From an uncultured bacterium (lineage in GTDB: Bacteria > Omnitrophota > Omnitrophia > Omnitrophales > Aquincolibacteriaceae): a stretch of DNA of 64,000 nucleotides. The DNA lies in NCBI GenBank assembly GCA_964434115.1, contig CAYSSX010000003.1, positions 268,554-332,553 on the forward strand. Reading direction: 5' to 3'. Under the pieces are notes generated by a model. It searched no databases. It had not been told where the DNA came from and saw only the letters and a program-made list of their open reading frames with translations. Positions 1-21,962 of the stretch are shown here, piece by piece; position 1 is the first letter of the stretch, and every line of letters starts with the position of its first letter. The position numbers and the translations under genes are program-made.

Positions 1-1
1 G

Positions 2-1015
2 GTCACAGGGAATCCGGTTTTGATGAAACCTGCCGAGCAGTCCGCGTTTCTGGCTTGGCATGTTTGTAAGATTTACCGTGGAGCCGGAATTCCGGAGGGG
101 GTTGTGCAGTTTTTGCCCGGCAGGGGAGAAGAAGCCGGAGACGCTTTGGTCCGCCACCCGGATGTTGCCGTGATTGCCTTTACCGGTTCGCGGGAAACAG
201 GGCTTTCGATTTTGTCCGCAGGCAATGAAAAAGCAGCTACGCAGAAGCTTGTTAAAAAATTTCTTGTGGAAATGGGCGGAAAAAACCCCGCGGTGGTGGA
301 TGCCTCCGCGGATTTTGATCTCGCGGTTCCTGCGGTTCTTCAATCGGCTTTCGGCTATGCGGGGCAGAAGTGTTCGGCGCTTTCCCGGCTTTATGTAGTG
401 GCGGAGGCTTATGATGAATTTTTGAAGCGGCTTGCCGGAGCGGCCCGGGAATTTTCTTTGGGATCCCCGCTTGATCCCGCGAGTTCTTTGGGTCCCGTGA
501 TTGATGAGGCGGCCCGGCAAAAAATCCAAAGTTATATCGATCTGGGCAAAAAGGAAGGGCGTGTTCTTTTTGAAGGAGTTCTTCCTCCCGGGCTGCAGGG
601 GCCTTACCTGGCGCCTATTATTTTTTCGGATCTTCCGGAAACCTCCCGGCTTTTGAGAGAAGAAATTTTTGGTCCGGTTTTGTGCGTGATCCGGGCGCGG
701 GATTTTACCGAGGCCTTAAAACTTGCAGGGAACAGTGAGTATGCCTTAACGGCCGGGGTGTACAGCCGGACGCCGTCGCATTTGGAGATGGCCCGCAGGG
801 CCGAGTTTGCCGGGAATCTTTACCTGAACCGGGGACAGACCGGTGCGGTTGTGGGCCGACAGCCTTTTGGCGGATTTAAACTTTCCGGAGGCGGCACCAA
901 GGCCGGCGGAGTGGACTATCTCAGGGAATTTTATTTTTCGAGAACTGTTTCGGAAAATGTCTCGCGCCACGGTTTTGCGCCGCTTCGCGATGAATCAGGA
1001 AAAGAAGTTAAATAA
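2..1015 (+). CDS. 1-pyrroline-5-carboxylate (L-glutamate gamma-semialdehyde) dehydrogenase, C-terminal ~330 aa; 5' end lies outside the window
   Basis: ALDH superfamily motifs: catalytic Glu in 'EMGGKNPAVVD' and catalytic Cys in 'GQKCSA'. The C-terminal 'QPFGGFKLSGGGTKAGGVDYL' matches the RocA/PruA-type P5C dehydrogenase signature (FGGFKMSGTDSKAGGPDYL). The ORF runs to the window edge in frame. Confidence 0.75.
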   Translation, partial: VTGNPVLMKPAEQSAFLAWHVCKIYRGAGIPEGVVQFLPGRGEEAGDALVRHPDVAVIAFTGSRETGLSILSAGNEKAATQKLVKKFLVEMGGKNPAVVDASADFDLAVPAVLQSAFGYAGQKCSALSRLYVVAEAYDEFLKRLAGAAREFSLGSPLDPASSLGPVIDEAARQKIQSYIDLGKKEGRVLFEGVLPPGLQGPYLAPIIFSDLPETSRLLREEIFGPVLCVIRARDFTEALKLAGNSEYALTAGVYSRTPSHLEMARRAEFAGNLYLNRGQTGAVVGRQPFGGFKLSGGGTKAGGVDYLREFYFSRTVSENVSRHGFAPLRDESGKEVK

Positions 1016-1766
1016 GGGAAAGTCCGCCGTCCGCGATAATCGTCTGCCCGACAATCCACGCGGATTCAGGCATGACAAGAAACTTGACGATTCTTGCAAG
1101 ATCTTCTGGCTGGGCAATGCGCCCGGCGGGTGTGCGTTCAATGACTTTTTGGCGAAAGGAAGCATAGTCCGGAAAGAATTTGAGGGCATCCGTTTCTACA
1201 AGCCCGCCTGAGACCCCGTTGACGCGTATTTTTTTAGAGGCAAGCTCCACGGCAAGATAGCGTACCAGGCTTTCCACCGCAGCCTTTGAAACTCCGATGG
1301 CCCCGTAATTAGGGATAAATTGGCGCGCCCCAAGGCTTGAAAGCGCTATGACGGAACCTCCTCCGCGGCTTTCCATGGAAGGCAGGGCTTTTTGAACCAG
1401 AAGAAGAAAGGCCTTGGCATTGATATCAAGCGAAAGGTCCCACTGATTGGCTTTGAGCTTATGGGTGGGTTTGAAGGCGCCCATGGCCGCGTTATGGATC
1501 AGAATATCAATACCGCCTAAAGCCTGAAGCCCCTGATCCACAAGCGGTCCCAAGGCATCAGGGTCGCCCACGTTGGCTTGTACCGTGACAACCTTTGAAC
1601 CCAGCTTTTGAAGGTCTTCGGCGGTCTTTTTAGCCGCGTCTTCATCCCGGACATAATTGAGAATAATGTCTGCGCCGGCCCCTGCGAGCTCCAGGGCAAT
1701 CGCCCTGCCAATCCCGCGTGAGGCGCCTGTAATAAGGGCGACTTTGTTACTTAAAGGCCTGTTCAT
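1008..1766 (-). CDS. SDR-family enoyl-[ACP] reductase, FabL-like (NADPH-dependent)
   Basis: N-terminal 'KVALITGASRGIGRAIA' Rossmann motif. The catalytic Tyr/Lys spacing is Y-x6-K ('NYGAIGVSKAAV'), typical of FabI/FabL enoyl reductases rather than the Y-x3-K of FabG ketoreductases. The C-terminal 'GGLVETDALKFFP...IADGGLSLI' resembles Bacillus FabL. The first ATG is at 1766; the ORF-track start at 1802 is a TTG. Confidence 0.65.
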   Translation of the reverse strand: MNRPLSNKVALITGASRGIGRAIALELAGAGADIILNYVRDEDAAKKTAEDLQKLGSKVVTVQANVGDPDALGPLVDQGLQALGGIDILIHNAAMGAFKPTHKLKANQWDLSLDINAKAFLLLVQKALPSMESRGGGSVIALSSLGARQFIPNYGAIGVSKAAVESLVRYLAVELASKKIRVNGVSGGLVETDALKFFPDYASFRQKVIERTPAGRIAQPEDLARIVKFLVMPESAWIVGQTIIADGGLSLI

Positions 1767-1831
1767 GGCCGAAAGCTTAGTAATGGAGGAGGTAAAAAGC
1801 AAACAAAAAAATATTCAGGCCTTAAGGGGTG

Positions 1832-1840
1832 TGTTATAAT
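1832..1840 (+). promoter_or_regulatory. Extended -10 promoter element (TGtTATAAT) in the divergent region upstream of the lipid-cluster operon
   Basis: 'gTGtTATAAT' at 1832-1840 lies ~40 nt upstream of the ATGATG start at 1880. No strong -35, which is consistent with an extended -10 promoter. Confidence 0.4.
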
Positions 1841-1879
1841 CCCCGACTCAAAACCCAGACCTGTCAGGCGTGCTGAGGC

Positions 1880-2521
1880 ATGATGATCCGGCAATGGCAA
1901 AGAAAAATCCTGGATTTTCTAGTCCGGCACCACCCGGCTCTTGGCTTGGAAGAGCGGGCGGAAGGTTTTGTTCAGCTTTTTGAAAAGGAATTGCCGAAGG
2001 AAAGCCTGATTCTGGATATCGGCGGAGGGTGGGGATTTTATCATGCTCCTCTTCTTGCGAGGGGACACAAGCACCTTGTGGTGGATGTGATAAAACCCGG
2101 GGTTCAAAAATGTCCCGTTGTGATTTATGACGGCAAGCGCCTCCCGTTCCCGGATCAAAGTTTTGATGTCAGTCTTTTTATTACGGTACTGCATCATATT
2201 CCTGATCCTGAGGCCGTGATTCGTGAAGCACTGAGGGTCACCCGTAAGCGTGTGATTGTGGTGGAAGACCTTTATCACCACGCGGCTGGCCGCTGGTGGA
2301 CCGTCCTGCGGGACCAGATTCTCAATGTAGAGTTCTTCGGACACCCTAAGAACTTTAAGACACGTGAGCAGTGGACAAGCCTTTTTCAAGACCTGGGCGG
2401 CTCGTTGAAGTTTCAGACCGAGGTTCAGACCTGGCTTTCCGGATTCCAGATTTTAAACGGGGTTTTTGTTTTTGATGTGGCCGGCTGTAGAAGTCCCCGC
2501 GAAATTTTGCAGCACGTTTAG
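1880..2521 (+). CDS. Class I SAM-dependent methyltransferase
   Basis: 'LILDIGGGWGFY' glycine-rich SAM-binding motif I; 'VDVIK...YDGKRLPFPDQSFDVSLFITVLHHIPDPEAVIREALRVTRKRVIVVED' is a typical Methyltransf_11/25 core. Confidence 0.6.
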   Translation: MMIRQWQRKILDFLVRHHPALGLEERAEGFVQLFEKELPKESLILDIGGGWGFYHAPLLARGHKHLVVDVIKPGVQKCPVVIYDGKRLPFPDQSFDVSLFITVLHHIPDPEAVIREALRVTRKRVIVVEDLYHHAAGRWWTVLRDQILNVEFFGHPKNFKTREQWTSLFQDLGGSLKFQTEVQTWLSGFQILNGVFVFDVAGCRSPREILQHV

Positions 2522-2538
2522 CAAAAAAGGGTCTTGAT

Positions 2539-2955
2539 ATGGAAGAGCTGCCGCAGACGGTGAACCTTGGCGTGCTTGGAAAAGCCCAAGCCGAGTATCT
2601 TCCTGACGGTAAAGGAATGAAAGCCTCGGGGCGTATTCCCGAAGACCTTGAATGCTTTCAGGATCATTTTCCAGGATTTCCGGTACTGCCGGGCGTTTTG
2701 GCTGTTGAGATTCAACGAAAACTGCGTGATTTTTTCTTTCAAACGAAGGCTCTTCCCGGAGCAGGGGATGAGTTTCGTGAAATAAGAGCTGTTAAATTCG
2801 CTTCTTTTTTAAGACCTGGTGATCCCTGGGAATTTCAGGGCGAAGTGAAAACCGGGCCGGGCGGAGAGAAGGTCTGGAAAGGCCGTCTTTCTTCCGGAGG
2901 CCGCCTTTCAGCGGCTTGTGAACTGGCGTTCGGCGCTCCTGCGCCGGCCGCCTAA
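2539..2955 (+). CDS. FabZ-like 3-hydroxyacyl-ACP dehydratase (hot-dog fold, catalytic His present)
   Basis: 'FQDHFPGFPVLPGVLAVEIQ' matches the FabZ active-site motif (HFPxxPVMPGVL...E). Size 138 aa. Confidence 0.7.
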   Translation: MEELPQTVNLGVLGKAQAEYLPDGKGMKASGRIPEDLECFQDHFPGFPVLPGVLAVEIQRKLRDFFFQTKALPGAGDEFREIRAVKFASFLRPGDPWEFQGEVKTGPGGEKVWKGRLSSGGRLSAACELAFGAPAPAA

Positions 2956-2966
2956 GAACGAGGAGG

Positions 2967-3374
2967 ATGATCGACCTCATGGATAAACAAATTTTTGAAA
3001 AAATTCAGGAAACTTTGGCAAGCGCGCTTGGCGTCGAAAAGACGGAAGTAACGCCGGAAGCATCGCTCACACGTGATCTCGGAGCGGAGTCTATTGACTT
3101 CATCGATATTATTTTCCGGCTTGAGAAGACTTTTGACATTAAGATCCCGAGCGGAGAACTTTTTCCCGGGAATGTTCTGAATAACGAGCGTTTTGTCTCG
3201 GCTGGCCGCGTGACCGATGCCGGGCTTGAGGAGCTGAAAATCCGGATGCCCTATCTTGATGTGGAAACCTTTTCCAAGGATCCCCAGATTTCCAAATTGG
3301 CTGAAGCCTTCACAGTCCAAATGGTGATTAACTATATCCGGGATCGTCTTGCCAAGGAAGCCCCCAAGGCCTGA
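2967..3374 (+). CDS. Acyl carrier protein with a ~45-aa insertion between helix II and helix IV
   Basis: 'TRDLGAESIDFIDIIFRLEKTF' carries the phosphopantetheine-attachment Ser motif (DSL-like 'AESID') followed by helix II. At 135 aa it is unusually long for an ACP. A GAGGAGG Shine-Dalgarno precedes it; the alternative ATG at 2979 cannot be excluded. Confidence 0.7.
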   Translation: MIDLMDKQIFEKIQETLASALGVEKTEVTPEASLTRDLGAESIDFIDIIFRLEKTFDIKIPSGELFPGNVLNNERFVSAGRVTDAGLEELKIRMPYLDVETFSKDPQISKLAEAFTVQMVINYIRDRLAKEAPKA

Positions 3375-3375
3375 G

Positions 3376-3759
3376 ATGAAACTCGCAGGTCTCGGCATCG
3401 ATGTGCTGTCGATTTCGAGGGCTGAAAAGTTTCTCGCTCACCGGACCCGGGAGTCTCTTTCGCGCGTCCTTTGCCCTTCCGAGCAAAAGTTTTTTGCCAA
3501 ACGTCTTTCCGTCCTTCAATTCGCCAAAATATTTACGGCCAAAGAAGCCTTCTTTAAGGCTTCACAAATGCCTCCTTCCGGACTTTATGGCTTTTCCGAG
3601 CTTGAGGTAAAGCTCTTGCCTCAGGAGCGTTTTGAGATAAAATGGCTTCGACCTGCGGGTCTGAAGAAAGGCCCCAAAGCCTGCGGCTGCCATTTTGTGA
3701 GCCCTGGATATGTTGGAGCGCAAGTCATTCTCTGGACGCCCTTTTCGGACGTCCTCTAA
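3376..3759 (+). CDS. acpS: Holo-[ACP] synthase (4'-phosphopantetheinyl transferase, AcpS type)
   Basis: N-terminal 'MKLAGLGIDVLSISRAEKF' matches the AcpS 'GIGxDIVEIxRI' motif. Size ~127 aa. The ATG is 1 nt after the ACP stop, so the two are translationally coupled. Confidence 0.7.
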   Translation: MKLAGLGIDVLSISRAEKFLAHRTRESLSRVLCPSEQKFFAKRLSVLQFAKIFTAKEAFFKASQMPPSGLYGFSELEVKLLPQERFEIKWLRPAGLKKGPKACGCHFVSPGYVGAQVILWTPFSDVL

Positions 3760-3800
3760 CCTGGCGGCTTACCGCCCTTCATACCGTTTGTTGATTCCGG

Positions 3801-4259
3801 ATGCGATGGATTTTGCTTGATGAAGTTGTGGAAGTCCGCGAAGGGGATTCTGCCCTGACTCGCGCCCGTGTCCCCGCCGCCCCTTTCAGTGTTGAAGTCC
3901 TCCTTCTTGAAATGATGGCCCAGACGGGGGGGCTTCTTCTCGGCGCGTCCCATAATTTTCAAAACGACGTGGTTTTTGGGAAAGTCGAAAGCGCTGTTTT
4001 CCAGGGACCCTTTGCTCAAGGCGCTCCGCTTGAAATCTCTGCTGTATCCAAAGAAAGCCGCGAAGAAGGGGGCTGGTTCGAAGCCTGGGTCAGCTCTTCG
4101 GGAAAAGTGCTGGCTGAAAGCCGCTTCTTTCTTGCCAATGCAGGACGCTTGATGCCGGAGCAGAACGTCTCGGTGACTTTTCCGGAACCCTTTCTGCAGC
4201 ATTTCCGTGTCCGTGAAAAAGTAAAACGTGCCGCCGGTTCTTCTCAGGGTGACTTGTGA
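3801..4259 (+). CDS. Hot-dog fold dehydratase-like protein lacking the canonical catalytic His (probable partner subunit of the FabZ-like protein)
   Basis: 'VEVLLLEMMAQTGGLL' resembles the FabZ/FabA central helix, but the HxxxxPxxPG motif is replaced by 'RVPAAPFS'. Comparable to the ApeI/ApeP pair in aryl-polyene clusters. The stop overlaps the next gene's GTG start (GTGA). Confidence 0.5.
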   Translation: MRWILLDEVVEVREGDSALTRARVPAAPFSVEVLLLEMMAQTGGLLLGASHNFQNDVVFGKVESAVFQGPFAQGAPLEISAVSKESREEGGWFEAWVSSSGKVLAESRFFLANAGRLMPEQNVSVTFPEPFLQHFRVREKVKRAAGSSQGDL

Positions 4260-5527
4260 CCGGGCGCCGGCGTGTTGTGATTACAGGTCTGGGTGTTATC
4301 ACCGCCTGCGGGAACGGGTGGAAAGCTTACTGGGAAAATGCACGCCAGGGTCAAAGCGTTCTGGCTCCTTCACGGGAAATATTTCCAGGGGCACACCCCG
4401 TGCGCCTGCTCGGTGAAATTTCCGGATTCACTCCCGGAGAATTGATCAAGGCACGAAAGTCGATCAAGGTGATGTCCCGGGATATTCAATTTGCCGTCGC
4501 GGCAAGTTCTCTTGCCATGCAGGACGCTGGTCTTTCTGCAGAACAGCTGGAGCTTGACCGCTCGGGTGTCTCCATCGGCGCGGTTGCCCCGATCAATAAT
4601 GACCTGGATGAAATCGGAGCCGGAATTTTTAAAGGCTTTGATACTGAAGGGCGTTTGCACATGAGCCGCTTTGGCAAGGACGGTATTCCTGCGCTTTTTC
4701 CTCTCTGGTTCCTCAAATATATTCCCAACATGCCGGCCTGCCATGTTTCCATTGCGCATGGGTTCAGGGGGCCCAACAACACTCTGAGTACCTCGGTCGC
4801 GGCTGGCCTTCAGGCGCTTGGAGAGGCTGCCCGGGTGATTGAGCGCGATGACGCGGACTGCATGCTGGCCGGAGGAACGGATTCAGAAACCAACCCGCTC
4901 GGTCTGTCGCGTTTTGAAATGCTGGGGCTTTTATCCCGGCGAACCGAACTGACGGCGCCTTTTGACGCGGCCTCCGATGGATTATTTCCCGGCGAAGGCG
5001 CGGGCGTTCACGTTTTGGAAAGTCTTGCGCACGCCAAGGACCGGGGCGCGCGCATTTACGCGGAGATTACAGGCTATGGGTCTTCGGGAGACGGAGATCA
5101 TGACCCTCTGAACCCTCAAGATTTTTCAGGCCGCTTTCGGGCCATGAAACAAGCCTTGAAAGACGCCCAGCTTGAGTTCGCGGACGTGGATGCTGTTTTT
5201 GCCTGCGGATCCGGCATTCCCGCGCATGATCGATTGGAAGCGCAGGCGCTTAAAGCCTTGGGAGCGCCGAAGCTTGTTACTTTTTTGAAACCCGTGGCAG
5301 GGCATTTAATGTCCGCTTCGGGCGCGGTTGAAACAGCTGCCGCCTGCGCGGCCCTGCAGGAAGGCCTTTTGCCGCCGGCTGCGGGATTCAAAAAATTCGC
5401 GGAAGACTGTGAGCTGCCTTTGATTCCGGCCCCGAGAGACGCAGCGATTGAGACCGTCATGGTCAATGCGTTTGGTTTGAGCGGCCAGAATGTTTCGCTG
5501 ATTCTTAAAAAATTTTCCGGAGTTTAA
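4256..5527 (+). CDS. Beta-ketoacyl synthase family protein lacking the catalytic Cys and first His (chain-length-factor-like KS partner)
   Basis: Full-length FabF-like thiolase fold ('VVITGLGVITACGNGW', 'DADCMLAGG', 'KPVAGHLMSASGAVE'). At the active-site position FabF 'ATACTSG' reads 'STSVAAG' (Cys to Val). FabF 'NAHGTST' reads 'FACGSGI' (first His lost). The Lys and second His are retained. GTG start. Confidence 0.75.
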   Translation: MTGRRRVVITGLGVITACGNGWKAYWENARQGQSVLAPSREIFPGAHPVRLLGEISGFTPGELIKARKSIKVMSRDIQFAVAASSLAMQDAGLSAEQLELDRSGVSIGAVAPINNDLDEIGAGIFKGFDTEGRLHMSRFGKDGIPALFPLWFLKYIPNMPACHVSIAHGFRGPNNTLSTSVAAGLQALGEAARVIERDDADCMLAGGTDSETNPLGLSRFEMLGLLSRRTELTAPFDAASDGLFPGEGAGVHVLESLAHAKDRGARIYAEITGYGSSGDGDHDPLNPQDFSGRFRAMKQALKDAQLEFADVDAVFACGSGIPAHDRLEAQALKALGAPKLVTFLKPVAGHLMSASGAVETAAACAALQEGLLPPAAGFKKFAEDCELPLIPAPRDAAIETVMVNAFGLSGQNVSLILKKFSGV

Positions 5528-5528
5528 A

Positions 5529-6821
5529 GTGAATTCCAAACGAAGAGTCGTCATTACGGGGTTTGGATCCGTGTCGCCTTTGGGGCTTTCCACAAACGAG
5601 TTGTGGGAAAATCTTAAGGCTGGGCGTTCGGGGATTAAACGCATTTCACTTTTTGAAGCGGAAGGGTTTCCGGTTCAGATCGCCGGAGAAGTCAAAGGCT
5701 TTGACGCGGAAAAATTTTCCCGCGCAGATCCGGCTCTTCAGCATGCCGGAAGGGGAACACTCTTCGCGCTTCAGGCCGCCGAGGAAGCCGTGGCTATGTC
5801 CGGACTGAGCTTTAATCAGGGGAACCCGGAGAGGATTGGGATCTTTTTTGGAGCGGGAGATAACGGGAATAATTTTCCGGGATTTTGCCGTTCGCTTTAC
5901 GAAGCAAGAAATCCTTCCTCCGGGCATGTGGGCTTTACCGGATATATTGAGGCGGCTTCCAGAAATCTGAAAAGTTTTGAAGAACTGGGAATCCAGCCTT
6001 CCAGGACGCTCGCGCATTTGGCGGCGCGCTTTGGGGTTCAAGGCCCGGTCGCCAACACGATTACAGCTTGCGCAGCCTCTTCCCAGGCCATTGGGGAGGG
6101 CTCAGAATGGATTCGCCGGGGAGATGCGGATGTGGTGATTTCGGGCGGTACTCACGCGATGGTTTACCCGCTGGCTTTAACCGGATTCAGTCTTCTGACA
6201 GCCCTTTCTCCGAGAAACTCAGAACCAGAGCGAGCCTCCCGGCCTTTTGATAAAAACCGAGACGGATTTGTGATCGCGGAAGGTGCCGGCGTTGTCATTC
6301 TTGAAGAGCTGGAGCATGCCCTGAAGAGAAAAGCGCCCATTTTGGGGGAGCTTGCCGGTTATGGCTCCACGGGAGACGCTTACCGCATGACCGATATGGA
6401 TCCGGAAGGCAAAGGTGCCTGCCGGGCCATGGAGATAGCCCTTCGGAAAGGGGGGCTTTCCCCCTCAGAAATCGGCTATATTAACGCCCATGGAACGGCG
6501 ACCCAGGTCAATGATGCAATTGAAACACTTGTCATTAAGAAGGTTATGGGCGAGAATGCACCCCGGATTCCGGTTAGTTCCATCAAGTCCATGTTAGGGC
6601 ACATGATTGCCGCGGCCGGAGCTGTCGAGCTTATCGCGTGCCTTTTGGCCATCCGCGATCAGCTTCTTCCTCCGACCATCAATTACGAAGAGCCGGATCC
6701 TGCCTGTGATCTTGATTATGTACCGAATAAGGCGCGCGAAGCTAAAGTGGACGCCGCGCTTTCAAATTCTTTTGGTTTTGGCGGTCAAAATATCTGTTTG
6801 GCGGTGAAACGTTATGGCTGA
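5529..6821 (+). CDS. Beta-ketoacyl-[ACP] synthase (FabF/KAS II family, catalytically intact)
   Basis: Active-site Cys in 'ITACAASSQAIG'; His in 'NAHGTATQVND'; Lys and His in 'SIKSMLGHMIAAAGAVE'; C-terminal 'NSFGFGGQN'. GTG start 1 nt after the previous stop. Confidence 0.85.
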   Translation: MNSKRRVVITGFGSVSPLGLSTNELWENLKAGRSGIKRISLFEAEGFPVQIAGEVKGFDAEKFSRADPALQHAGRGTLFALQAAEEAVAMSGLSFNQGNPERIGIFFGAGDNGNNFPGFCRSLYEARNPSSGHVGFTGYIEAASRNLKSFEELGIQPSRTLAHLAARFGVQGPVANTITACAASSQAIGEGSEWIRRGDADVVISGGTHAMVYPLALTGFSLLTALSPRNSEPERASRPFDKNRDGFVIAEGAGVVILEELEHALKRKAPILGELAGYGSTGDAYRMTDMDPEGKGACRAMEIALRKGGLSPSEIGYINAHGTATQVNDAIETLVIKKVMGENAPRIPVSSIKSMLGHMIAAAGAVELIACLLAIRDQLLPPTINYEEPDPACDLDYVPNKAREAKVDAALSNSFGFGGQNICLAVKRYG

Positions 6822-7914
6822 AACAAAAAATCTTTTTATTACCGGTGTGACAGGGACCCTGGGCAAGGAATTGATCCGGGAACTTTTGCGCACAACCAAT
6901 GACCGTCTGGTGGTCCTGATCCGAGGGAAGAACCGTCTTTCCGCGGAAGACCGGCTCCGTAAAATTCTGAGTCTTCAAGGTTTGGAAGCGGAAGCAGGCC
7001 AGCGGATTCAAGCCGTTGAAGGCGACATTACCCAGCCTGGCTTTGGGCTTGCCCCGGAAGTCCGGGACCGCTTGATTCGTGAGACCGACCGGTTCTTCCA
7101 CATCGCGGCTTTGACGGCGCTGAATGGAAGCCGCGAAGATTGTTTCCGCATTAATCTTGGAGGAACTCTTGAGGCCTTGAAGCTTGCCTGGAGATTTTAC
7201 CGTGAAGGAAAATTGGAGCGGTTTTTTTACTTCAGCACGGCCTATGTCGCGGGAAGCCTTCAGACCTATTGTTCAAAAGAAAACAGCCTTCCTGAACAGC
7301 CGGCGCATGCGAACTTCTATGAGTCCAGCAAATATGAATCTGAAAAGCGCGTTCGCGAAGCCTTGGCAGAGGGGCTGCCCGTGACGATTTTCCGCCCCAG
7401 TATCGTGGTGGGCAATTCCGTGACTGGTGAGACCTCGGAATTTAATGTGATTTACCCGTTCCTTAAACTGTTTGCACACCGCATCATCACTGCGCTTCCT
7501 TCCCGCGTGGAGAATTCTTTCAATATTGTGCCGATCGACTTTGTGATCCGCGCCGCGCTTGAAATCGCTTCCCATGAGGACTCTGTCGGGAAAGGGTACC
7601 ACCTGGTCACCCAGAACCCCCCGACGATTGAGCTTCTTCTCGAAGTGGCCCGGCAGGAGTACCCTCAGATTCCGGCGATTGAAGTGATTGACCCTAAGGA
7701 TTTTGACCGGTCAGCGCTTTCGCCCCAGGAACAATTTGTTTATGACATGATGACGCCTTATTTGGGCTATCTAAACGATAATCTTACCTTTGAAACTACG
7801 CAGACAGAGGCCGCCCTGGCCGGAACAGGCGTGGAGTTTCCCAAAACCGACGGCGATTTTCTGCGGAGGCTTTTGGCGTATGCCGTGGATGCGGGTTACC
7901 TGGTGGTTTCCTAA
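6814..7914 (+). CDS. Stand-alone thioester reductase / fatty acyl-ACP(CoA) reductase (NAD-binding_4, 'male sterility' family)
   Basis: 'LFITGVTGTLGKELIREL' (TGxTGxLG Rossmann) and 'YESSKYESEK' (YxxxK) in the arrangement typical of NRPS/PKS terminal reductase domains and fatty acyl reductases. The start ATG overlaps the KS stop (ATGGCTGA). Confidence 0.7.
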   Translation: MAETKNLFITGVTGTLGKELIRELLRTTNDRLVVLIRGKNRLSAEDRLRKILSLQGLEAEAGQRIQAVEGDITQPGFGLAPEVRDRLIRETDRFFHIAALTALNGSREDCFRINLGGTLEALKLAWRFYREGKLERFFYFSTAYVAGSLQTYCSKENSLPEQPAHANFYESSKYESEKRVREALAEGLPVTIFRPSIVVGNSVTGETSEFNVIYPFLKLFAHRIITALPSRVENSFNIVPIDFVIRAALEIASHEDSVGKGYHLVTQNPPTIELLLEVARQEYPQIPAIEVIDPKDFDRSALSPQEQFVYDMMTPYLGYLNDNLTFETTQTEAALAGTGVEFPKTDGDFLRRLLAYAVDAGYLVVS

Positions 7915-9086
7915 CGCCAAACGGTTTGCTTGCGCGTGAAAGCCATGCGCGCGGCGTCCAGAAGTATTCCTGCGATGATGGCGGCCGCCAGAACGTGAAG
8001 CCATGCGAACCGGCGCGGCCCCCGGATAATTTCATACGCCTTCCAAGCCGTTGCCAGAATAATTCCTGCCGTAAACAGCGCCAAAGCCCATGACGTTTGA
8101 GGATACGCCCCGCCCGCGGGAAACCCTGTCAGCATGAGACCGATCCAGACAAAAGGGATGACGGAAAACAAAACGAGGCTTGAAGCCCTTGCCAGCAAGG
8201 GCAGTGTTTTGCGCTCAAATGAATGGAGGTAAATCCTTCTCCATCCCCGCCAGATGGCCCCGAAAGAATCGTACATCCTTGTTCCAAAGAAATCTGTTCC
8301 AATAGCCACCGCGCAGGGGAGCCCCGCCTCTTTGGCTTTTTTAAAGAGCGCGAAGTCTTCCAGAAACTCGGCCTTTACGGCAGCGTGCCCGCCCGTTTTT
8401 TCATACACCGACCGGTGCATCAGCAGATACTGTCCGTTTCCAAAATAAATTTTTTGCTCGGGGTCATTCACTTTTTCAACAGGAAACCATAGGCCCATCA
8501 AAGCCATGGCAACCGGCTGCAGGACTATTTCCCAAAAACCGCTGGCAAGGCACCGGGGAAGAAGTGTCAGCATCAAGGCCCCTCTTTTTTCCATGAGCCC
8601 GAGCGAGGCCCGGAGCGATTCCGGCTCATGCCGCGTGTCTGCATCCGTGAAAAGAAGCCATTCGCCTTGCGCGTAAGGGGCCCCAAAGGCAAGCGCGTGA
8701 TTTTTTCCGGTCCAGCCCGCAGGGGCAGGGGGGGAATTCAAGTAACTCAGCCGGGAGGCCCCTCGATCCGTCCCAGGATTCCCGGCGGGGCGTGCACCCA
8801 AAGCGAGGAGAATTTCTTCCGTACGGTCCGTCGAGTTGTCATTGATGACGAGGATTTCAAAATCCGGGTAATCGATAGCCAGCAGGCCTTCAACGCACAT
8901 CCGGATATTGCTTTCTTCGTTTTTTGCGGGAACGAGAATCGAAACTTTATTCCGCCCTCCCGAAAGAATGCCGTTACTTAATCGTGGCGCCCGGAAAAGA
9001 GTGACAAGGGCGCAGACGGAGCGGTTGATCCACACGGCCGCTGATGTCAAAAAGAAAATGAGGACGGGGTCAGGAGTTATTTTCAT
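7911..9086 (-). CDS. Membrane-anchored family 2 glycosyltransferase
   Basis: 'VSILVPAKNEESNI...ILVINDNSTDRTEEIL' GT-A N-terminal motif; 'LLFTDADTRHEP' DxD motif; hydrophobic C-terminal segments. Convergent with the reductase gene; the stops overlap by 4 nt. Confidence 0.7.
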   Translation of the reverse strand: MKITPDPVLIFFLTSAAVWINRSVCALVTLFRAPRLSNGILSGGRNKVSILVPAKNEESNIRMCVEGLLAIDYPDFEILVINDNSTDRTEEILLALGARPAGNPGTDRGASRLSYLNSPPAPAGWTGKNHALAFGAPYAQGEWLLFTDADTRHEPESLRASLGLMEKRGALMLTLLPRCLASGFWEIVLQPVAMALMGLWFPVEKVNDPEQKIYFGNGQYLLMHRSVYEKTGGHAAVKAEFLEDFALFKKAKEAGLPCAVAIGTDFFGTRMYDSFGAIWRGWRRIYLHSFERKTLPLLARASSLVLFSVIPFVWIGLMLTGFPAGGAYPQTSWALALFTAGIILATAWKAYEIIRGPRRFAWLHVLAAAIIAGILLDAARMAFTRKQTVWR

Positions 9087-9166
9087 AGCGGCACAGCATA
9101 ACCTAATCTTAGAACAGTGAAAAACTTTATTTCCGGATCTCTGACCGCTGACACTGAGGATTTTTT

Positions 9167-11506
9167 TTGTTAAAATATTTTTCCATGCCGCACCTATTTC
9201 GAAGACTTGCCCAGATTGTTCTTGTCAGCCGCTGGCCCCTTTTGCTGGGGCTTGGGATCATCACCCTTATCTGCGGATTTAAAGCGGTTCAGCTTCAGAT
9301 TGACCCCACGGTTGAGATGATGCTTGCCAAAAACACCAAAGAATACCGCGATTACGACGCCTACCGCACGACTTACGGGAGCGACTCGATTATTTTGGCG
9401 GCGATGGCCACGGACAATGTCTTTACGCCAACCAACCTTGCACTTTTAAAACGCGTCACGGAAGCCTGTCTGAAGTTTGAACAAGTGGAAAGCGTTCTCA
9501 GTCTTCCCGTAGTTTCCGATATCCGCCATAAAAGGTTCGGCGTGAAAATTGTTCCCGCCCTTGAAGGGGTGATGGAGGGGAGCCGCCCGATGGATGAGGC
9601 TCGCAGCGATATCCTCTCGAACGAACTTTATCTTAACAATCTCGTTTCCCATGACGGAAAGACCGCGAATTTAATCATTCGCGTGAAAACCTCCAAGGAC
9701 AAGGAAAGCGGGGTTCTGATCGAACATCTGAAGGCCATTTTCCGGACCGAGGAAAAACACGGCGGGGTTAAATTTTATATGGCAGGCGCCCCCGTCGAGC
9801 AGTATGAATTTGTAAGGCTTATCCGTAAAGACCAGTTCACTTTTGTCCCGATGATTACGGCGTTTTTAATCGCGGCGACCTTTTTATTTTACCGGAGCAT
9901 TCCGTGCGTCATCCTGGCCCTTTCCAAAGTCTTTGTCACGCTGGCCTGGACTTTTGGTTCTATTGCCTTCTTTGGGCAGGAACTGAATCTCGTCACCTCT
10001 CTTCTTGCGCCGGTTCTTATGATCATCACGGTGGTGAACTCCATTCATTTTATGAATTTGTTTTTTGATATCCGCGCGCATCATCCCAGCCTGCGGATGT
10101 CCGTTGTTTTGACCATGGAACAGCTGGGGCTTCCGAGCCTGCTCACGCACGCCACGACGGTGCTGGGTTTTCTTTCCTTGGCCTTGGACAGTGTTCCCGC
10201 GATCCGGAGTTTTGGTCTCTTTGCCGCGCTTGGGTCTTTTTACTCTTTTCTGGTTGCGATGCTTTTGACACCCGTACTGCTTTTGTCCCTTCCCTACAGA
10301 GCGAGACCCCGTGATTTCAATGACCGGCATTTTTTTAACAAGATCCTTGTGGGGTTCCTTGAGAAGCTTGAACACCGGTGGAAGTGGGTGATTCTGGCCA
10401 TTGTTGTTGTTTCCGTGGCTTTTTCGGCGGCGGGAATTAAAAAACTCAATGTGGATACGAATATCGTCAAGCAGCTGAAGCCCGATTCTCCGCTCGCCGT
10501 TTCTACGCGATTCATCGACGAGCATATTTTGGGCGTTTACACGCTGGGGTTTGTTCTCAGAACGCGTGACGGTTCGACGATCGTGAATCAGGAAACCCTG
10601 AAGCGCCTGGATGCTTTTAAAACCTTTCTTGAACAGATGCCTGAAATTTCAAACGTGAACAGCATCACGACGCTGATTAAAAGAATTCACCTTGCCCGCA
10701 AGCAGAGTCCCGAGGCCTACGTCATTCCGGGACAGGTAGACTTGGAAAGATACTTTAAAGGGATTACCGCTGACGATAACCCTGAAACCTGGAGCATGAT
10801 GTCGCGGGATTTGAAGGAGGTCCGCCTTCAGGCCCAGATGAAAGCGGTCGGAACCCGGGAGGGGAAGCTTGTCGAAAAAAAGGCCCGCGCCTATATGCAG
10901 AAAAAACTTTCGCCCTATTTTGAGACCCTGATGACGGGCCATGTGGTGCTTCTCGGCAGAATGGCTGAGAATCTTGTCCATTCGCAGATGATGAGTTTTG
11001 GTTTTGCCTTTGCGTCTATTTTTCTGGTCATTGCCTTGATCTTCCGCTCTCTTAAAATGGGGCTCCTTGCGGCAGTGCCCAACATTGTTCCGATTCTTTT
11101 GACCTATGGCATTATGGGATTCCTTCATGTTGAGCTTTCCACCTCAACCGCGATGATCTCAAGTATTGTGCTGGGACTTGTCGTAGACTCCTCTATCCGG
11201 TTTTTGCACCGCTTCCAGCTGGAGTTTGAAAAAAGAGGCCATTATCTTCAGGCGCTGCACCATACCTACCGGAATACGGGGCAAGCCATGTTCATTTCAA
11301 CCTTGATTCTGGTGGTGGGGTTTGGAACCAGTGTTTTCGCCGGTTTCCGTCCCACGATTCAGTTTGGGGTTTTGACAAGCCTAACTATTTTTCTATCCAT
11401 GATTTGCACACTTCTCGTTCTTCCGGTTCTGGTGGTGATGACCCGGCCTTTTGGCCGGCAGCGGCTTTTCCGGAAGCAGAAAGAAGGGGCCGACCCGTTT
11501 CGTTGA
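9167..11506 (+). CDS. MMPL-family RND-type lipid exporter
   Basis: 779 aa with two hydrophobic blocks, each followed by a large soluble loop (MMPL/HpnN-like architecture). TTG start at 9167 with GAGGA 6 nt upstream; the alternative ATG is at 9185. Confidence 0.8.
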   Translation: MLKYFSMPHLFRRLAQIVLVSRWPLLLGLGIITLICGFKAVQLQIDPTVEMMLAKNTKEYRDYDAYRTTYGSDSIILAAMATDNVFTPTNLALLKRVTEACLKFEQVESVLSLPVVSDIRHKRFGVKIVPALEGVMEGSRPMDEARSDILSNELYLNNLVSHDGKTANLIIRVKTSKDKESGVLIEHLKAIFRTEEKHGGVKFYMAGAPVEQYEFVRLIRKDQFTFVPMITAFLIAATFLFYRSIPCVILALSKVFVTLAWTFGSIAFFGQELNLVTSLLAPVLMIITVVNSIHFMNLFFDIRAHHPSLRMSVVLTMEQLGLPSLLTHATTVLGFLSLALDSVPAIRSFGLFAALGSFYSFLVAMLLTPVLLLSLPYRARPRDFNDRHFFNKILVGFLEKLEHRWKWVILAIVVVSVAFSAAGIKKLNVDTNIVKQLKPDSPLAVSTRFIDEHILGVYTLGFVLRTRDGSTIVNQETLKRLDAFKTFLEQMPEISNVNSITTLIKRIHLARKQSPEAYVIPGQVDLERYFKGITADDNPETWSMMSRDLKEVRLQAQMKAVGTREGKLVEKKARAYMQKKLSPYFETLMTGHVVLLGRMAENLVHSQMMSFGFAFASIFLVIALIFRSLKMGLLAAVPNIVPILLTYGIMGFLHVELSTSTAMISSIVLGLVVDSSIRFLHRFQLEFEKRGHYLQALHHTYRNTGQAMFISTLILVVGFGTSVFAGFRPTIQFGVLTSLTIFLSMICTLLVLPVLVVMTRPFGRQRLFRKQKEGADPFR

Positions 11507-11583
11507 CAGTTTCTCCCTCCCCGTACTATAATCCCCTCTATTTATTTTTCTTAAGTCGTTAAAAATCAAGGGTCTAGGAACTT

Positions 11584-13030: not shown

Positions 13031-14332
13031 ATGGGTTTTGAATCCTTTATCGCGATGAAACATTTACGTGCCCGCCGCCAGACAGGGTTTATTTCCCTCA
13101 TCACGGTCATTTCCGTGCTGGGTGTGGGGGTGGGAGTCATGGCCCTTATCGTGGTGATGGCCGTGATGAGCGGTTTTGACCGGGAGCTCAAATCAAAGAT
13201 CGTGAATGTCCAGCCGCATCTGCGCATCGAGAAAGTCGGCGGTCTGGACAACGTGGATGCTGAAATTGAAAAAATCAAAGAGCATGGCATTCAGGGAATT
13301 AAAACACTTTCCGCCTACATCGAAGGGCAGGGGATTCTCCGCTCCAGCGCAAACGCGACAGGTGTTCTGGTGAAGGGGATGGATACTGAGCGCGAAGACA
13401 TGGGCGTCTATCAGCAGCACATGATTTTCGGAATGCTGGACCTGACTTCCCAGCAGGTCTCGACCACGCACCGGAAAATGCTCTTTTTCAAAGAAACGAG
13501 AGAGGAAAGCCTGGGGGGGGTTGTGATCGGGGAAACCCTTGCCGACCTTCTTCAGGTCAGAATCGGTGATCGCGTGGATTTGATTTCACCCTTCAAGGAT
13601 CCGGGCAATAACCTTCTGGCGGTCCGCGCGGAAAGCCGGACTTTTCTTGTCAAAGGAATTTTCCGCGTGGGGATGAATGACTTTGACACCTCGCTTGCGC
13701 TCATCAGTCTTCACGAGGCCCAGAATGTTTACCGGATGGGAACCCGGGTTTCGGGGATCAGCCTGCGGTTCAACGACGTGGATGACGCCCAGAAGTGGAA
13801 ATATTTTCTGCAGAGTTACTTTACACCGGACTACTATCTCCGGTCATGGTACGACATGAACCATAATTTTTTTCAGGCCCTGAAAGTGGAGAAGTCGGTG
13901 ATGACCATTCTTCTCGCGCTTATCATTCTTGTCGCGGCATTCAATATTGTGTCCACCTTGATCATGATCGTCATGGAGAAGACCAAGGACATCGGTATCC
14001 TGAGAGCACTCGGGGCCACTAGCGCGAGCATCCGCCGGATTTTTATGATGGAAGGGTTCAGTGTCGGAGTTTTTGGCGTGGCCTTTGGTGCTGGCGCCGG
14101 TCTGCTGTTGGCTTTTAACCTTAATCCGGTGTCGGATTTTCTTAAACAAACCACGGGGCTTGAGGTTTTTCCAAGCGACATTTACTTCTTTGACAAAATT
14201 CCCGCGGAAGTCCATGCCCCCGATGTGGTGGTTGTAGTGGCCTTTGCCATGCTTGCTTCGATCCTTGCCGGTATTTATCCCGCCGGACGTGCGGCTGCGC
14301 TGGATCCCGTGGAGGCCCTGCGTTATGAGTAG
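13031..14332 (+). CDS. lolE: Lipoprotein-releasing system permease (LolC/LolE, FtsX/MacB family)
   Basis: N-terminal 'AMKHLRARRQTGFISLITVISVLGVGVGVMALIVVMAVMSGF' is a typical LolC/E start; large periplasmic domain; C-terminal FtsX-like 4-TM region. Confidence 0.8.
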   Translation: MGFESFIAMKHLRARRQTGFISLITVISVLGVGVGVMALIVVMAVMSGFDRELKSKIVNVQPHLRIEKVGGLDNVDAEIEKIKEHGIQGIKTLSAYIEGQGILRSSANATGVLVKGMDTEREDMGVYQQHMIFGMLDLTSQQVSTTHRKMLFFKETREESLGGVVIGETLADLLQVRIGDRVDLISPFKDPGNNLLAVRAESRTFLVKGIFRVGMNDFDTSLALISLHEAQNVYRMGTRVSGISLRFNDVDDAQKWKYFLQSYFTPDYYLRSWYDMNHNFFQALKVEKSVMTILLALIILVAAFNIVSTLIMIVMEKTKDIGILRALGATSASIRRIFMMEGFSVGVFGVAFGAGAGLLLAFNLNPVSDFLKQTTGLEVFPSDIYFFDKIPAEVHAPDVVVVVAFAMLASILAGIYPAGRAAALDPVEALRYE

Positions 14333-15038
14333 CCAGCCGCGCGAACTTTTCAGTGTGTTCAATGTGACGAGAGAATACGACATGCCGACCGGAACCCTTT
14401 GTGTTTTGAAAGGGATCAATTTTTCTCTTGCGCGGGGGGATATGGCGTTTGTCGTAGGCCGTTCCGGTTCCGGTAAATCGACTTTTCTTCACCTGCTGGG
14501 CGGCTTGGATCAGCCGAGCGGCGGAAAAATTCTTTTTGAAGGCGAAGATATGACCGAGATGAGCGAAAAGGAGCTTTCCCGGATCCGTAACCGCCGCATT
14601 GGACTGGTCTTTCAGTTTTATCATCTTTTGCCGGAACTCACGCTGTTTGAAAATGTCCTGCTTCCGAGTTTGATCGCGGGAAAGCCCAACCCTAAATGGG
14701 CTAAAGAATGTTTGAGAAAAGTAAAACTGTACAGCCGCGCTGAGCATTATCCGGCGGAGTTGTCGGGCGGAGAGAAACAGAGGGCTGCGATGGCCCGGGC
14801 GCTCGTCAACCGACCGTCCGTGGTGCTCTGCGATGAACCGACGGGAAACCTTGATGTGGAGACTGCCGCGTCCGTCGTGTCTTTGATGGAAGATTTGAAC
14901 CGGCGCGAGGGGATCGCCTTTGTGGTGGTCACGCATGACGAATCCATGGCTGCGCGGCATGAACAGGTTTACCGGATCACGGACGGTGTCCTGCTTCGAC
15001 GGGACACAAGACAAGTCAATATTTCACGCATTTCTTAA
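14325..15038 (+). CDS. lolD: Lipoprotein-releasing system ATP-binding protein
   Basis: Walker A 'GRSGSGKST', ABC signature 'LSGGEKQRAAMARAL', Walker B 'VVLCDEPTGNLD'. ATG at 14325 overlaps the lolE stop. Confidence 0.85.
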   Translation: MSSQPRELFSVFNVTREYDMPTGTLCVLKGINFSLARGDMAFVVGRSGSGKSTFLHLLGGLDQPSGGKILFEGEDMTEMSEKELSRIRNRRIGLVFQFYHLLPELTLFENVLLPSLIAGKPNPKWAKECLRKVKLYSRAEHYPAELSGGEKQRAAMARALVNRPSVVLCDEPTGNLDVETAASVVSLMEDLNRREGIAFVVVTHDESMAARHEQVYRITDGVLLRRDTRQVNISRIS

Positions 15039-15137
15039 TCTTTGATATTCGGAGCTGACCTATCCTTTTGATCCGGCCCAGCCGGTTTCTTCAGGCCCTG
15101 CGCCCTCCGGAACAAATTTAAATTACAGGAGAGAAGT

Positions 15138-16034
15138 ATGGAACTTCAGATTTACATCGACGGGAAATGGTACCCCAAGAGTGAAGCCAAAATTTCAGTC
15201 TTTGATCACGGACTCCTTTATGGCGACGGTGTCTTTGAGGGGATCCGTACCTACAAGGGCCTGGTCTTCAAGCTTCAGGAGCATTTGGACCGTCTCTGGG
15301 AATCGGCGCATACGCTTATGATCCGGATCCCGATGACGCAGAAAGAAATGCAGAAGGCTATTGTTGATACGCTTAAACGGAACAAGTTCATGGACGGCTA
15401 CATCCGGGTTGTGGTCACCCGCGGGGTGGGCGATTTGGGGCTGGATCCAGCCAAATGCAAGGTCGCTTCTGTTTTCATCATTACCGACAAGATCGCGCTT
15501 TATCCCGAGGCCTTTTACAGCGAGGGACTGCAGATTGTGACCGTGCCGACGGTGCGCAATTTCCCGGAAGCGGTCAGCCCGGCAGTGAAGAGTTTGAACT
15601 ACCTCAACAATATTCTCGCCAAAATTGAAGCCAAAAATTCCGGCTGCGTCGAGGCCCTTATGCTGAATCACCAGGGGTATGTCGCGGAGTGCTCAGGGGA
15701 CAACGTTTTTATGGTCAAGGCCGAAGGGCGGAGTAAAAAACCAGTGCTGATGACGCCCCCGGTTTATCTGGGCTCGCTCAACGGAATTACGCGCGGGGCA
15801 ATCATTGAAGTGGCTGCTCAGAAAAAAATCGAATTCCGTGAGCAGGTTCTGACACGGCATGATCTTTTCAACGCCGACGAAGTTTTTTTGACAGGGACTG
15901 CGGCGGAAGTGATTCCAGTTGTGAAAATCGACGGACGGGAAATTGCCTCCGGAAAGCCCGGTCCAATCACGCTTCGTCTTCGCCAAGGGTTCCAGGCGCT
16001 GACTGCAAAAGACGGCGTCCGGTACAAGGTTTAA
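15138..16034 (+). CDS. ilvE: Branched-chain amino acid aminotransferase (class IV PLP enzyme)
   Basis: 'HGLLYGDGVFEGIRTY' and 'EVFLTGTAAEVIPV' class-IV aminotransferase motifs; closer to IlvE than to D-alanine aminotransferase. Confidence 0.7.
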   Translation: MELQIYIDGKWYPKSEAKISVFDHGLLYGDGVFEGIRTYKGLVFKLQEHLDRLWESAHTLMIRIPMTQKEMQKAIVDTLKRNKFMDGYIRVVVTRGVGDLGLDPAKCKVASVFIITDKIALYPEAFYSEGLQIVTVPTVRNFPEAVSPAVKSLNYLNNILAKIEAKNSGCVEALMLNHQGYVAECSGDNVFMVKAEGRSKKPVLMTPPVYLGSLNGITRGAIIEVAAQKKIEFREQVLTRHDLFNADEVFLTGTAAEVIPVVKIDGREIASGKPGPITLRLRQGFQALTAKDGVRYKV

Positions 16035-16042
16035 ACGGGCCT

Positions 16043-17622: not shown

Positions 17623-17728
17623 GTAGTCAATGGTTTGCCGGAAAAGTCGAAAATTAGAGGATGGCAGTAACAGGGTTAGTTTAACGAAATTATCATATCC
17701 GATATTGTTTTAACCGCGGAGGTTTGCG

Positions 17729-21121: not shown

Positions 21122-21165
21122 GCAAGGATTTTTTTGCCCCCGGAAGACGGAAACGCTGAAAAATT

Positions 21166-21930: not shown

Positions 21931-21962
21931 ACCTTTTTAGATCAAAGAACAGGCAGGGAGCA

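Follow-up and report, generated by a model that had tools for sequence, protein, structure and literature searches.

A conserved Omnitrophota operon as a candidate pathway for a reductively released, glycosylated envelope lipid

The Omnitrophota are widespread, uncultured and mostly ultra-small bacteria. We analyzed a 64,000-nucleotide stretch of one Omnitrophota genome (positions 268,554 to 332,553 of contig CAYSSX010000003.1, GenBank assembly GCA_964434115.1; hereafter the window) and focus here on a block at its positions 1008–11506, which encodes enzymes resembling those of type II fatty acid synthase (FAS) and polyketide synthase (PKS) systems. The proteins of the window were examined through an open reading frame (ORF) listing and Pfam and NCBIfam profile searches, with PDB and fold-match comparisons for selected proteins. 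All eleven ORFs of the block were recovered with the coordinates, spacing, domains and peculiarities given in a preliminary description of this DNA (Table 1). They comprise a FabL-type enoyl reductase; a methyltransferase (MT); two hot-dog dehydratase subunits (DH1 and DH2); a long acyl carrier protein (ACP) and an AcpS-type synthase, whose ORF directly follows it; a ketosynthase (KS) and a homologue resembling a chain length factor (CLF); a thioester reductase (TR); a membrane glycosyltransferase of family 2 (GT2); and an MMPL-family transporter of the resistance-nodulation-division (RND) type. The genes are tightly packed, with overlaps of 4 nt for DH2/CLF and 8 nt for KS/TR, 1 nt between CLF and KS, and a 4-nt overlap of the convergent TR and GT2.

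Table 1. Genes of the block, with their presence in related loci. Positions are those of the window; the last column gives the number of loci with the gene over the number in which it was observable.
Gene product	Position	Strand	Basis or remark	Related loci
FabL-type NADPH enoyl-ACP reductase (short-chain dehydrogenase/reductase, SDR)	1008–1802	-	Divergent from operon; PDB 3oic, NCBIfam FabL	12/16
Class I S-adenosylmethionine-dependent MT	1880–2521	+	First operon gene; Pfam Methyltransf_11, 3.9e-14	17/17
DH1, FabZ/ApeI-like hot-dog dehydratase subunit with catalytic His	2539–2955	+	Pfam FabA, 1.2e-6	16/17
Long ACP, 131 aa, ORF open from 2967	2979–3374	+	PP-binding plus ~50-residue insertion before helix IV	18/18
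AcpS-type holo-ACP synthase, ORF open from 3349	3376–3759	+	Pfam ACPS, 1.9e-12	17/20
DH2, hot-dog subunit without catalytic His, presumed DH1 partner	3801–4259	+	Predicted fold	26/26
CLF-like ketosynthase homologue, 423 aa, triad lost (V-C-H)	4256–5527	+	Pfam ketoacyl-synt N and C domains	
FabF-derived KS, triad intact (C-H-H), predicted active	5529–6821	+	NCBIfam, alignment	16/16
Stand-alone TR	6814–7914	+	NAD_binding_4, 2e-54	15/15
Membrane GT2, HpnB/CruG/GT21-like type	7911–9086	-	Convergent with TR; Glycos_transf_2, 2.5e-22; Glyco_transf_21, 9.3e-12	12/13
HAE3/MMPL-family RND transporter with sterol-sensing-like domain	9167–11506	+	Pfam MMPL, 7e-31; Sterol-sensing, 1.5e-7	4/8

Conservation was scored in 29 loci, labelled Omnitrophota, that encode a CLF at least 46% identical to that of the block, with each gene counted only where the contig extends far enough. 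The presence counts define a core from MT to GT2, to which FabL is usually attached, with the pump present in about half of the loci. The order MT-DH1-ACP-AcpS-DH2-CLF-KS-TR, followed by a convergent GT2, is kept across CLF identities of 47–78%, and the grouping of the genes is beyond chance. The preliminary description had proposed a specialized type II FAS/PKS-like lipid cluster rather than a plain fab operon, and a specialized orthologous cluster does indeed exist widely. Among the matches listed, nearly every named homologue of CLF and ACP carries the label Candidatus Omnitrophota or Omnitrophica. The gene order around the cluster, SecA-Lnt-aldo/keto reductase-(PutA)-FabL(-)-cluster-LysRS-LolCD, recurs in loci L083 to L086; PutA is missing from L086, and the far end of this setting lies outside the available sequence in L084 and L086.

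The ketosynthase pair combines one partner with an intact catalytic triad and one that has lost it. In the MAFFT alignment, the triad columns read C-H-H in KS and V-C-H in CLF, and the orthologues of CLF carry V, A or S, then C or N, then H or N. The preliminary description was thus correct that one ketosynthase lacks its Cys, but the replacement is Val and not the Ser that it had read there. KS scores just under the cutoff of the TIGR03150 fabF model (478.4 bits vs 493.75) and passes that of the NF005589 "beta-ketoacyl-ACP synthase II" subfamily (462.9 vs 387); none of the block's KS, ACP, DH1 and FabL reaches the curated NCBIfam equivalog cutoffs for FabF, AcpP, FabZ and FabL. In a tree built by neighbor joining only, with 200 bootstraps, the Omnitrophota KSs and the Omnitrophota CLFs are each monophyletic with 100% support. 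The Omnitrophota KSs are sister to a KS from a Gemmataceae cluster (95.5%), and the CLFs of all long-ACP clusters, from Omnitrophota, Gemmataceae and Thermodesulfobacteriota, form one group (98.5%). Elsewhere in the tree lie the housekeeping FabFs, the anammox pairs and the KSs of aryl polyene (APE) synthesis, ApeO and ApeR being the outgroup. As this tree reconstructs its descent, the pair is FabF-derived and lies outside the housekeeping FabF group.

The ACP is unusually long for a carrier protein. The Pfam PP-binding domain covers only residues 11–66, and alignment to canonical ACPs in the PDB covers residues ~10–64 and ~115–128, leaving an insertion of ~50 residues at ~65–114. In the predicted model (predicted local distance difference test score, pLDDT, 81.5), a canonical four-helix core is interrupted, after the helix II/III region and ahead of helix IV, by a small subdomain modeled with short strands at ~73–78 and helices at 80–89, 95–98 and 104–110. 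Foldseek searches with this model returned only ordinary ACPs of 70–95 residues (template modeling score ~0.8 on the target and ~0.5 on the query), so no solved structure resembles the insertion. Conservation of the insertion equals that of the core, with a mean column identity of 77% and several invariant columns. Across the Omnitrophota, the ACP is 69–90% identical in the 120 matches listed, and is far more conserved than the neighboring proteins. The best NCBIfam ACP model gives 63.2 bits vs a cutoff of 71. A profile of the long ACP retrieved 1,007 representatives at 50% identity with E ≤ 1e-10, of which at least 150 score E < 5e-25, most of these matching across the insertion. The companion AcpS-type gene is also seen in locus L082, where it encodes 127 aa and lies directly 3' of the ACP gene. 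Lone long ACPs occur amid DNA-repair and translation genes in L168 (10001–10408) and L169 (6470–6898), with no KS or dehydratase within 10 kb; in some lineages the long ACP may stand apart from any cluster. One protein of 884 aa, P0304, contains 11 separate stretches that match the N-terminal part of the long-ACP profile and looks like a tandem multi-ACP protein.

The two dehydratase genes present a similar pairing of an intact and an altered partner. In DH1, the motif DHFPxFPVLPGVL..E is invariant in 31 relatives; precomputed Pfam hits assign the protein to PF22818 (ApeI-like), and its NCBIfam FabZ score of 33 bits is far under the cutoff of 113. A Pfam search with DH2 gave no hit. Its AlphaFold model is a hot-dog fold (pLDDT 89.5), whose top fold match is FabZ 3d6x (5e-8), with ApeP 6qsr_B (2.7e-6) and the anammox FabZ also listed; in the alignment, DH2 lacks the His of the HF site, and its LEMMAQTGG motif is invariant. 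The best-supported reading is that DH1, with its His, and DH2, with a conserved Glu, would form one asymmetric, heterodimeric dehydratase. The alignments thus agree with the pairing of KS and CLF and of a His-bearing with a His-less dehydratase that the preliminary description had put forward.

That description had also pointed to an enoyl reductase in the place where a ketoreductase (KR) would be expected, and FabL is indeed of the enoyl reductase type. Its top PDB match is Bacillus subtilis FabL 3oic (6.9e-71, 242 bits, with the runner-up at 153 bits), it scores 308.9 bits with the NCBIfam FabL model (cutoff 328), and its NYGAIGVSK motif has the Y-x6-K spacing typical of enoyl reductases, whereas ketoreductases have Y-x3-K. 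FabL is not adjacent to the cluster in L081 and L001. In L081, an Omnitrophota contig, a giant ORF (positions 1–7423; called at 7,691 aa and without a recorded Pfam hit) stands in place of the PutA-FabL neighborhood upstream of the cluster. Near FabL, an aldo/keto reductase of ~370 aa is kept just upstream in four loci (L083, 2528–3640; L084, 2708–3817; L085, 2629–3747; L086, 5829–6941) and directly adjoins FabL in L086; in the organism studied here it would sit to the left of the window.

TR is a genuine thioester reductase, as had been proposed. In addition to its NAD_binding_4 domain, its closest PDB relatives are the reductase domain of MxaA (4u7w, 1.1e-32) and a PKS TR (8v1x), and the motifs TGxTGxLG and YExSK are invariant in 17 sequences, such that the NAD(P)-binding and Y-x3-K motifs are both intact. 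MxaA, its closest solved relative, is a four-electron, alcohol-forming reductase. The aldo/keto reductase upstream of FabL could finish the conversion of aldehyde to alcohol after release by TR. Profile searches found no thioesterase or adenylating enzyme in the block, again in line with the preliminary description.

The remaining genes encode GT2, the transporter and MT. GT2 has hydrophobic segments at its N- and C-terminus and scores 132 bits with the NCBIfam HpnB model and 109 bits with CruG, both under the cutoff; it resembles enzymes that glycosylate membrane lipids, namely CruG, HpnB and the GT21 ceramide glucosyltransferase family. The transporter scores 208 bits with the HAE3 model TIGR00921 (cutoff 351.9) and matches HpnN only weakly. 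MT has only generic PDB and NCBIfam matches. A BioC-like role for MT in priming, through methylation of malonyl-ACP, was considered and not adopted, the BioC match being generic (23 bits vs a cutoff of 185). Between TR and GT2, locus L086 carries two further genes (13656–16337), one for a 313-aa membrane protein of the fatty acid desaturase family and one for a 516-aa protein without a family, an insertion suggesting that a saturated chain may be desaturated or hydroxylated.

Relatives of the system were also found beyond the main cluster. A genome scan with a single CLF returned mostly housekeeping FabG-ACP-FabF loci from many phyla, with only L001, L027, L041 and L079 being informative. A second version of the cluster, with a CLF 40–45% identical to that of the block (L112, L113 and L117–L119), has the long ACP, DH1/DH2 and KS/CLF in common with the Omnitrophota block and carries a FabG-type KR inside the cluster. 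It is accompanied by a copy of GT2 (37–42% identical) and of FabL (51–54% in these five loci and 48% in L126). That GT2 and FabL also flank this KR-containing version argues that both belong to the system. Its tailoring genes on the metagenome contig L118 (2894–16918) encode a hexapeptide transferase, a HAD phosphatase, a class III aminotransferase, a PaaK/DVU_1553-like ligase and an LPG-synthase-like membrane protein. In Gemmataceae, L027 has the order DH-KR-long ACP-DH-CLF-KS, followed by an alpha/beta-hydrolase and a GH3-family enzyme, and in Thermodesulfobacteriota, L041 has five KS genes, a KR, a long ACP and a dehydratase.

The clusters of L027, L041 and L118 are like the block in having a long ACP of ~130 aa with the insertion, 40–51% identical over its full length, and KSs and CLFs in the same clades; the DH1/DH2 pair is likewise shared among long-ACP clusters. 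They differ from it in their in-cluster FabG-type KR and in their release and tailoring genes. No clear TR orthologue was found in these three loci, the sole hit resembling TR being a weak one in L041 (25% identity, E = 2.4e-6), and no match to MT or MMPL was found in them. To judge from these comparisons, the closest relatives of the block are clusters with FabF-derived KS/CLF pairs, a kind first recognized in anammox bacteria and Desulfotalea (PMC2649909; bioRxiv 10.64898/2026.05.19.726425), and, closer still, the uncharacterized long-ACP clusters of Gemmataceae and Thermodesulfobacteriota.

Two known systems offer precedents for what such a gene set might do. The first is heterocyst glycolipid synthesis in Nostocales (HglE/G/D/C/A/B and HglT), with which the block would share its chemical logic: a long chain is built, released as a fatty alcohol by a TR and then glycosylated to give an envelope lipid. 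The likeness drawn here is one of logic. The Hgl system is a multidomain, type I-like PKS with DevBCA-TolC as its exporter, whereas all enzymes of the block are discrete single-domain proteins and its exporter is of the RND/MMPL kind. In the accepted pathway for heterocyst glycolipids (PMC10569477), KS/CLF, ACP, dehydratase, enoyl reductase and KR are followed by a thioester reductase and then by a glycosyltransferase. The second precedent is anammox Cluster I (amxACP, amxFabZ and amxFabF2/amxFabFmut; PDB 9s5h), which shares with the block a triad-less FabF homologue just upstream of the KS, a dedicated ACP and a FabZ-like dehydratase. Its active FabF-derived KS and triad-less partner form a functional heterodimer that decarboxylates malonyl-ACP and can therefore start chains (bioRxiv 10.64898/2026.05.19.726425).

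We favor, with moderate confidence, a model in which the block is a dedicated operon, inherited vertically within Omnitrophota, for making an envelope glycolipid of the sugar-capped fatty-alcohol type with a reduced acyl chain as its backbone. In this model, AcpS would load the long ACP, on which KS and its triad-less partner, presumably as a heterodimer, would extend malonyl-derived units; by analogy with the anammox heterodimer, the pair might also start chains by decarboxylating malonyl-ACP. The beta-keto group would be reduced by a FabG encoded elsewhere, the DH1/DH2 pair would dehydrate the product, and FabL would reduce the enoyl intermediate to give a largely saturated chain. TR would then free the chain from its carrier, yielding an aldehyde or alcohol, the membrane GT2 would add a sugar to the lipid, MT would add a methyl group at an unspecified position, and the HAE3/MMPL pump would move the product towards the outer membrane. 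The linkage of FabL, the MxaA-like TR, the lipid-type GT2, the heterocyst and anammox precedents and the native genomic context all support this model. It keeps the proposal of the preliminary description, a saturated or partly saturated, reductively released envelope lipid, as the best available one, although we infer both the saturation state and the product.

Several considerations weigh against this model. No KR, malonyl transferase or initiating KS is encoded in or near the cluster (FabG, FabD and FabH are found neither in the window nor in the ±10-kb flanks of related loci, and a search of the window for a second copy of KS, ACP or SDR found none), so the line depends on enzymes encoded elsewhere. 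FabL may be a housekeeping reductase that is kept adjacent by phylum-wide synteny, and the MMPL gene is adjacent in only half of the loci in which it could be observed (4 of 8). Dehydratase pairs of the ApeI/ApeP-like kind are best known from polyene-forming systems, which would favor an unsaturated product. To our knowledge, HpnB itself has no proven function. The lipid acceptor of GT2 is putative, and the product is predicted from the genes.

An alternative that we consider unlikely, although it draws on several features of the block, is that its core (the long ACP, AcpS, KS/CLF, DH1/DH2 and FabL) is the main FAS of the phylum in a heterodimeric format, and that TR, GT2, MT and MMPL form a co-transcribed branch diverting part of the acyl-ACP to an alcohol glycolipid. 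The phosphopantetheinyl transferase of the block is of the AcpS type, which is normally dedicated to primary FAS. The ACP, at 69–90% identity among the listed matches, is far more conserved than its neighbors, the block lies inside a core syntenic housekeeping region, KS passes the NF005589 cutoff, and long ACPs also stand alone in housekeeping contexts (L168 and L169). Gene annotations from other Omnitrophota genomes bear on this point. Among the rows listed for genomes 58, 231 and 221 in supplementary file 6 of Seymour et al. 2023 (PMC10066038), acpP and acpS occur once each, fabF occurs once in genomes 58 and 231, fabH occurs in one of the three genomes, and no KEGG orthology (KO) entry for fabI, fabK, fabL or fabV appears. 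Such a pattern would agree with FabL, scoring under its threshold, being the only enoyl reductase and with KS/CLF taking the place of FabH, but these KO counts are not linked to genomes that carry the cluster and are suggestive only.

Other observations speak against a primary FAS. The same listed rows include a fabZ KO, which suggests a separate canonical FabZ, given that DH1 is far under the FabZ cutoffs, and the ACP, DH1 and FabL of the block all fall under their NCBIfam equivalog cutoffs. The Gemmataceae relative has cluster-specific tailoring genes (the alpha/beta-hydrolase and the GH3-family enzyme), although a normal FAS beside it is only assumed. Stated more broadly, and with no less doubt, the proposal would be that Omnitrophota, and perhaps other lineages with lone long ACPs, run their primary FAS on an ACP of ~130 aa that has an extra subdomain, with a KS/CLF that both initiates and elongates chains (so that FabH would not be needed), a His+/His- dehydratase and a divergent FabL, and that the same operon uses reductive release to divert acyl-ACP towards a methylated alkyl-glycoside lipid of the outer membrane.

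The preliminary description had labelled the block an APE/flexirubin-type cluster, and a comparison with the E. coli CFT073 APE cluster (ApeA-R; L087 33727–48748) does not uphold this label. The two share a broad outline, comprising a KS with an inactive partner, a two-subunit hot-dog dehydratase, an ACP, a methyltransferase, a GT2 and an MMPL exporter. The APE cluster, however, lacks an enoyl reductase, a thioester reductase and an AcpS, all three of which the block has. In BLASTP comparisons of the proteins, the likeness was faint for DH1 with ApeI (E = 0.002) and DH2 with ApeP (E = 0.034) and weak for MMPL with ApeM (6.6e-6); KS shares 32% identity with ApeO and 35% with ApeR, and no match was found between CLF and ApeC (423 vs 240 aa), MT and ApeB, or GT2 and ApeJ. 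Neither an ApeH-type aryl-starter ligase, an ApeK thioesterase nor an ApeQ KR, nor LolA-like, DUF3261 or acyltransferase genes, were found in 1008–11506 or the flanks of the related loci. Membership in the APE family was therefore rejected, given the unrelated CLF, MT and GT2, the position of the APE KSs as the outgroup of the tree and the missing APE-specific genes.

A looser version of this idea, in which no enoyl reduction takes place and the block makes a conjugated polyene, which TR would release as a polyenal or polyenol for glycosylation and methylation to a pigment or antioxidant lipid, with FabL as an unrelated housekeeping neighbor, is in our view quite unlikely. It takes its appeal from the dehydratases, since DH1 has ApeI-like precomputed Pfam hits and DH2 is faintly ApeP-like and matches the ApeP structure. 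Were FabL set aside, the block would also combine a KS/CLF and a dehydratase heterodimer with no in-cluster enoyl reductase, as in highly reducing type II polyene synthases such as those for APE and ishigamide, and L081 and L001 do lack an adjacent FabL. Yet FabL is linked to the cluster in 12 of 16 loci and again in the variant cluster, and the best fold match of DH2 is FabZ, not ApeP. The block also has no in-cluster KR, whereas APE synthesis needs ApeQ, and the missing starter ligase, thioesterase, LolA-like protein and acyltransferase, together with a CLF, MT and GT2 unrelated to their APE counterparts, count against this version as well.

A ladderane-type pathway, or one for a polyunsaturated hydrocarbon of the Desulfotalea type, is highly improbable and was rejected on gene content and on the position of KS/CLF in the tree: the block shares with anammox Cluster I the FabF-derived pair with a triad-less CLF upstream, but profile searches found in it neither of the cobalamin radical-SAM enzyme and phytoene-desaturase homologue that Cluster I carries, and the anammox pairs from Brocadiaceae and Jettenia (L058 and L064) form a branch of their own, to which the block's pair is not orthologous. 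The window has a single radical-SAM gene, at 53985–55343, and this is a MiaB-like housekeeping gene. The triad of the anammox mutant subunit is V-N-E vs V-C-H in CLF, the anammox ACP is of another type (the insertion in the block is different and much larger), and the block goes beyond the Cluster I set by TR, MT, the MMPL pump and DH2, its His-less second dehydratase. For Kuenenia and Desulfotalea psychrophila, FAS-like clusters in synteny with each other have been described that contain many fabF paralogues, a phenylacetyl-CoA-ligase-like (PaaK-like) gene and a glycosyltransferase, and whose product was not identified (Rattray et al., PMC2649909); a glycosyltransferase and a PaaK-like ligase also occur in the variant cluster L118. 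Among metagenome-assembled genomes from the Cariaco Basin, expressed clusters called "ladderane" by antiSMASH were reported in Omnitrophota and several other non-anammox phyla (PMC9902471). The Omnitrophota calls, which would otherwise speak for a ladderane pathway, may be this cluster.

The surroundings of the block are those of a core genome. The other genes of the window are core housekeeping ones, including PutA, LysRS, LolC/D, McsB, ClpC, MlaEFD, IspDF and Suf, as well as the Glu-, Cys- and Met-tRNA synthetases, GuaBA, DnaE, DnaG, RpoD and PyrB. An origin of the block as a horizontal island was rejected, because its guanine-plus-cytosine content matches that of its flanks and the region is syntenic core genome. 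Scans for promoters and terminators gave counts no better than shuffled controls, save for one perfect sigma-70 consensus (TTGACA, 18 nt, TATAAT; 12/12) at 11503–11532, within the 77 nt that separate the stop codon of MMPL from the start of LysRS. LysRS thus seems to have a strong promoter of its own and to lie outside the cluster transcript. Further downstream (16043–20200 and 20306–22763), a 172-aa unannotated ORF precedes the genes for an arginine kinase of the McsB type and for ClpC, after which comes a phospholipid transport set, MlaE-MlaF-MlaD. With LolCD, also encoded in the window, and with Lnt, encoded in the related loci, the Mla set makes up a second system for envelope-lipid trafficking near the cluster.

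FabF-derived KS/CLF pairs in type II FAS-like lipid clusters were already known; for this particular combination of genes, as for the cluster itself, we found no description in the papers searched. Nor did these papers yield lipid or envelope-chemistry data for Omnitrophota. The long ACP represents a new class of carrier protein and a large uncharacterized family, with ~1,000 representatives at 50% identity and E ≤ 1e-10. If the "ladderane" clusters that surveys report in Omnitrophota are this cluster, ladderane products would be unlikely for them by gene content. If the block should instead prove to be the main fatty acid synthase of the phylum, it would represent a new architecture for bacterial type II FAS. 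The conserved operon is a clonable candidate for the synthesis of a signature envelope lipid of the Omnitrophota, and such a lipid could serve as an environmental biomarker.

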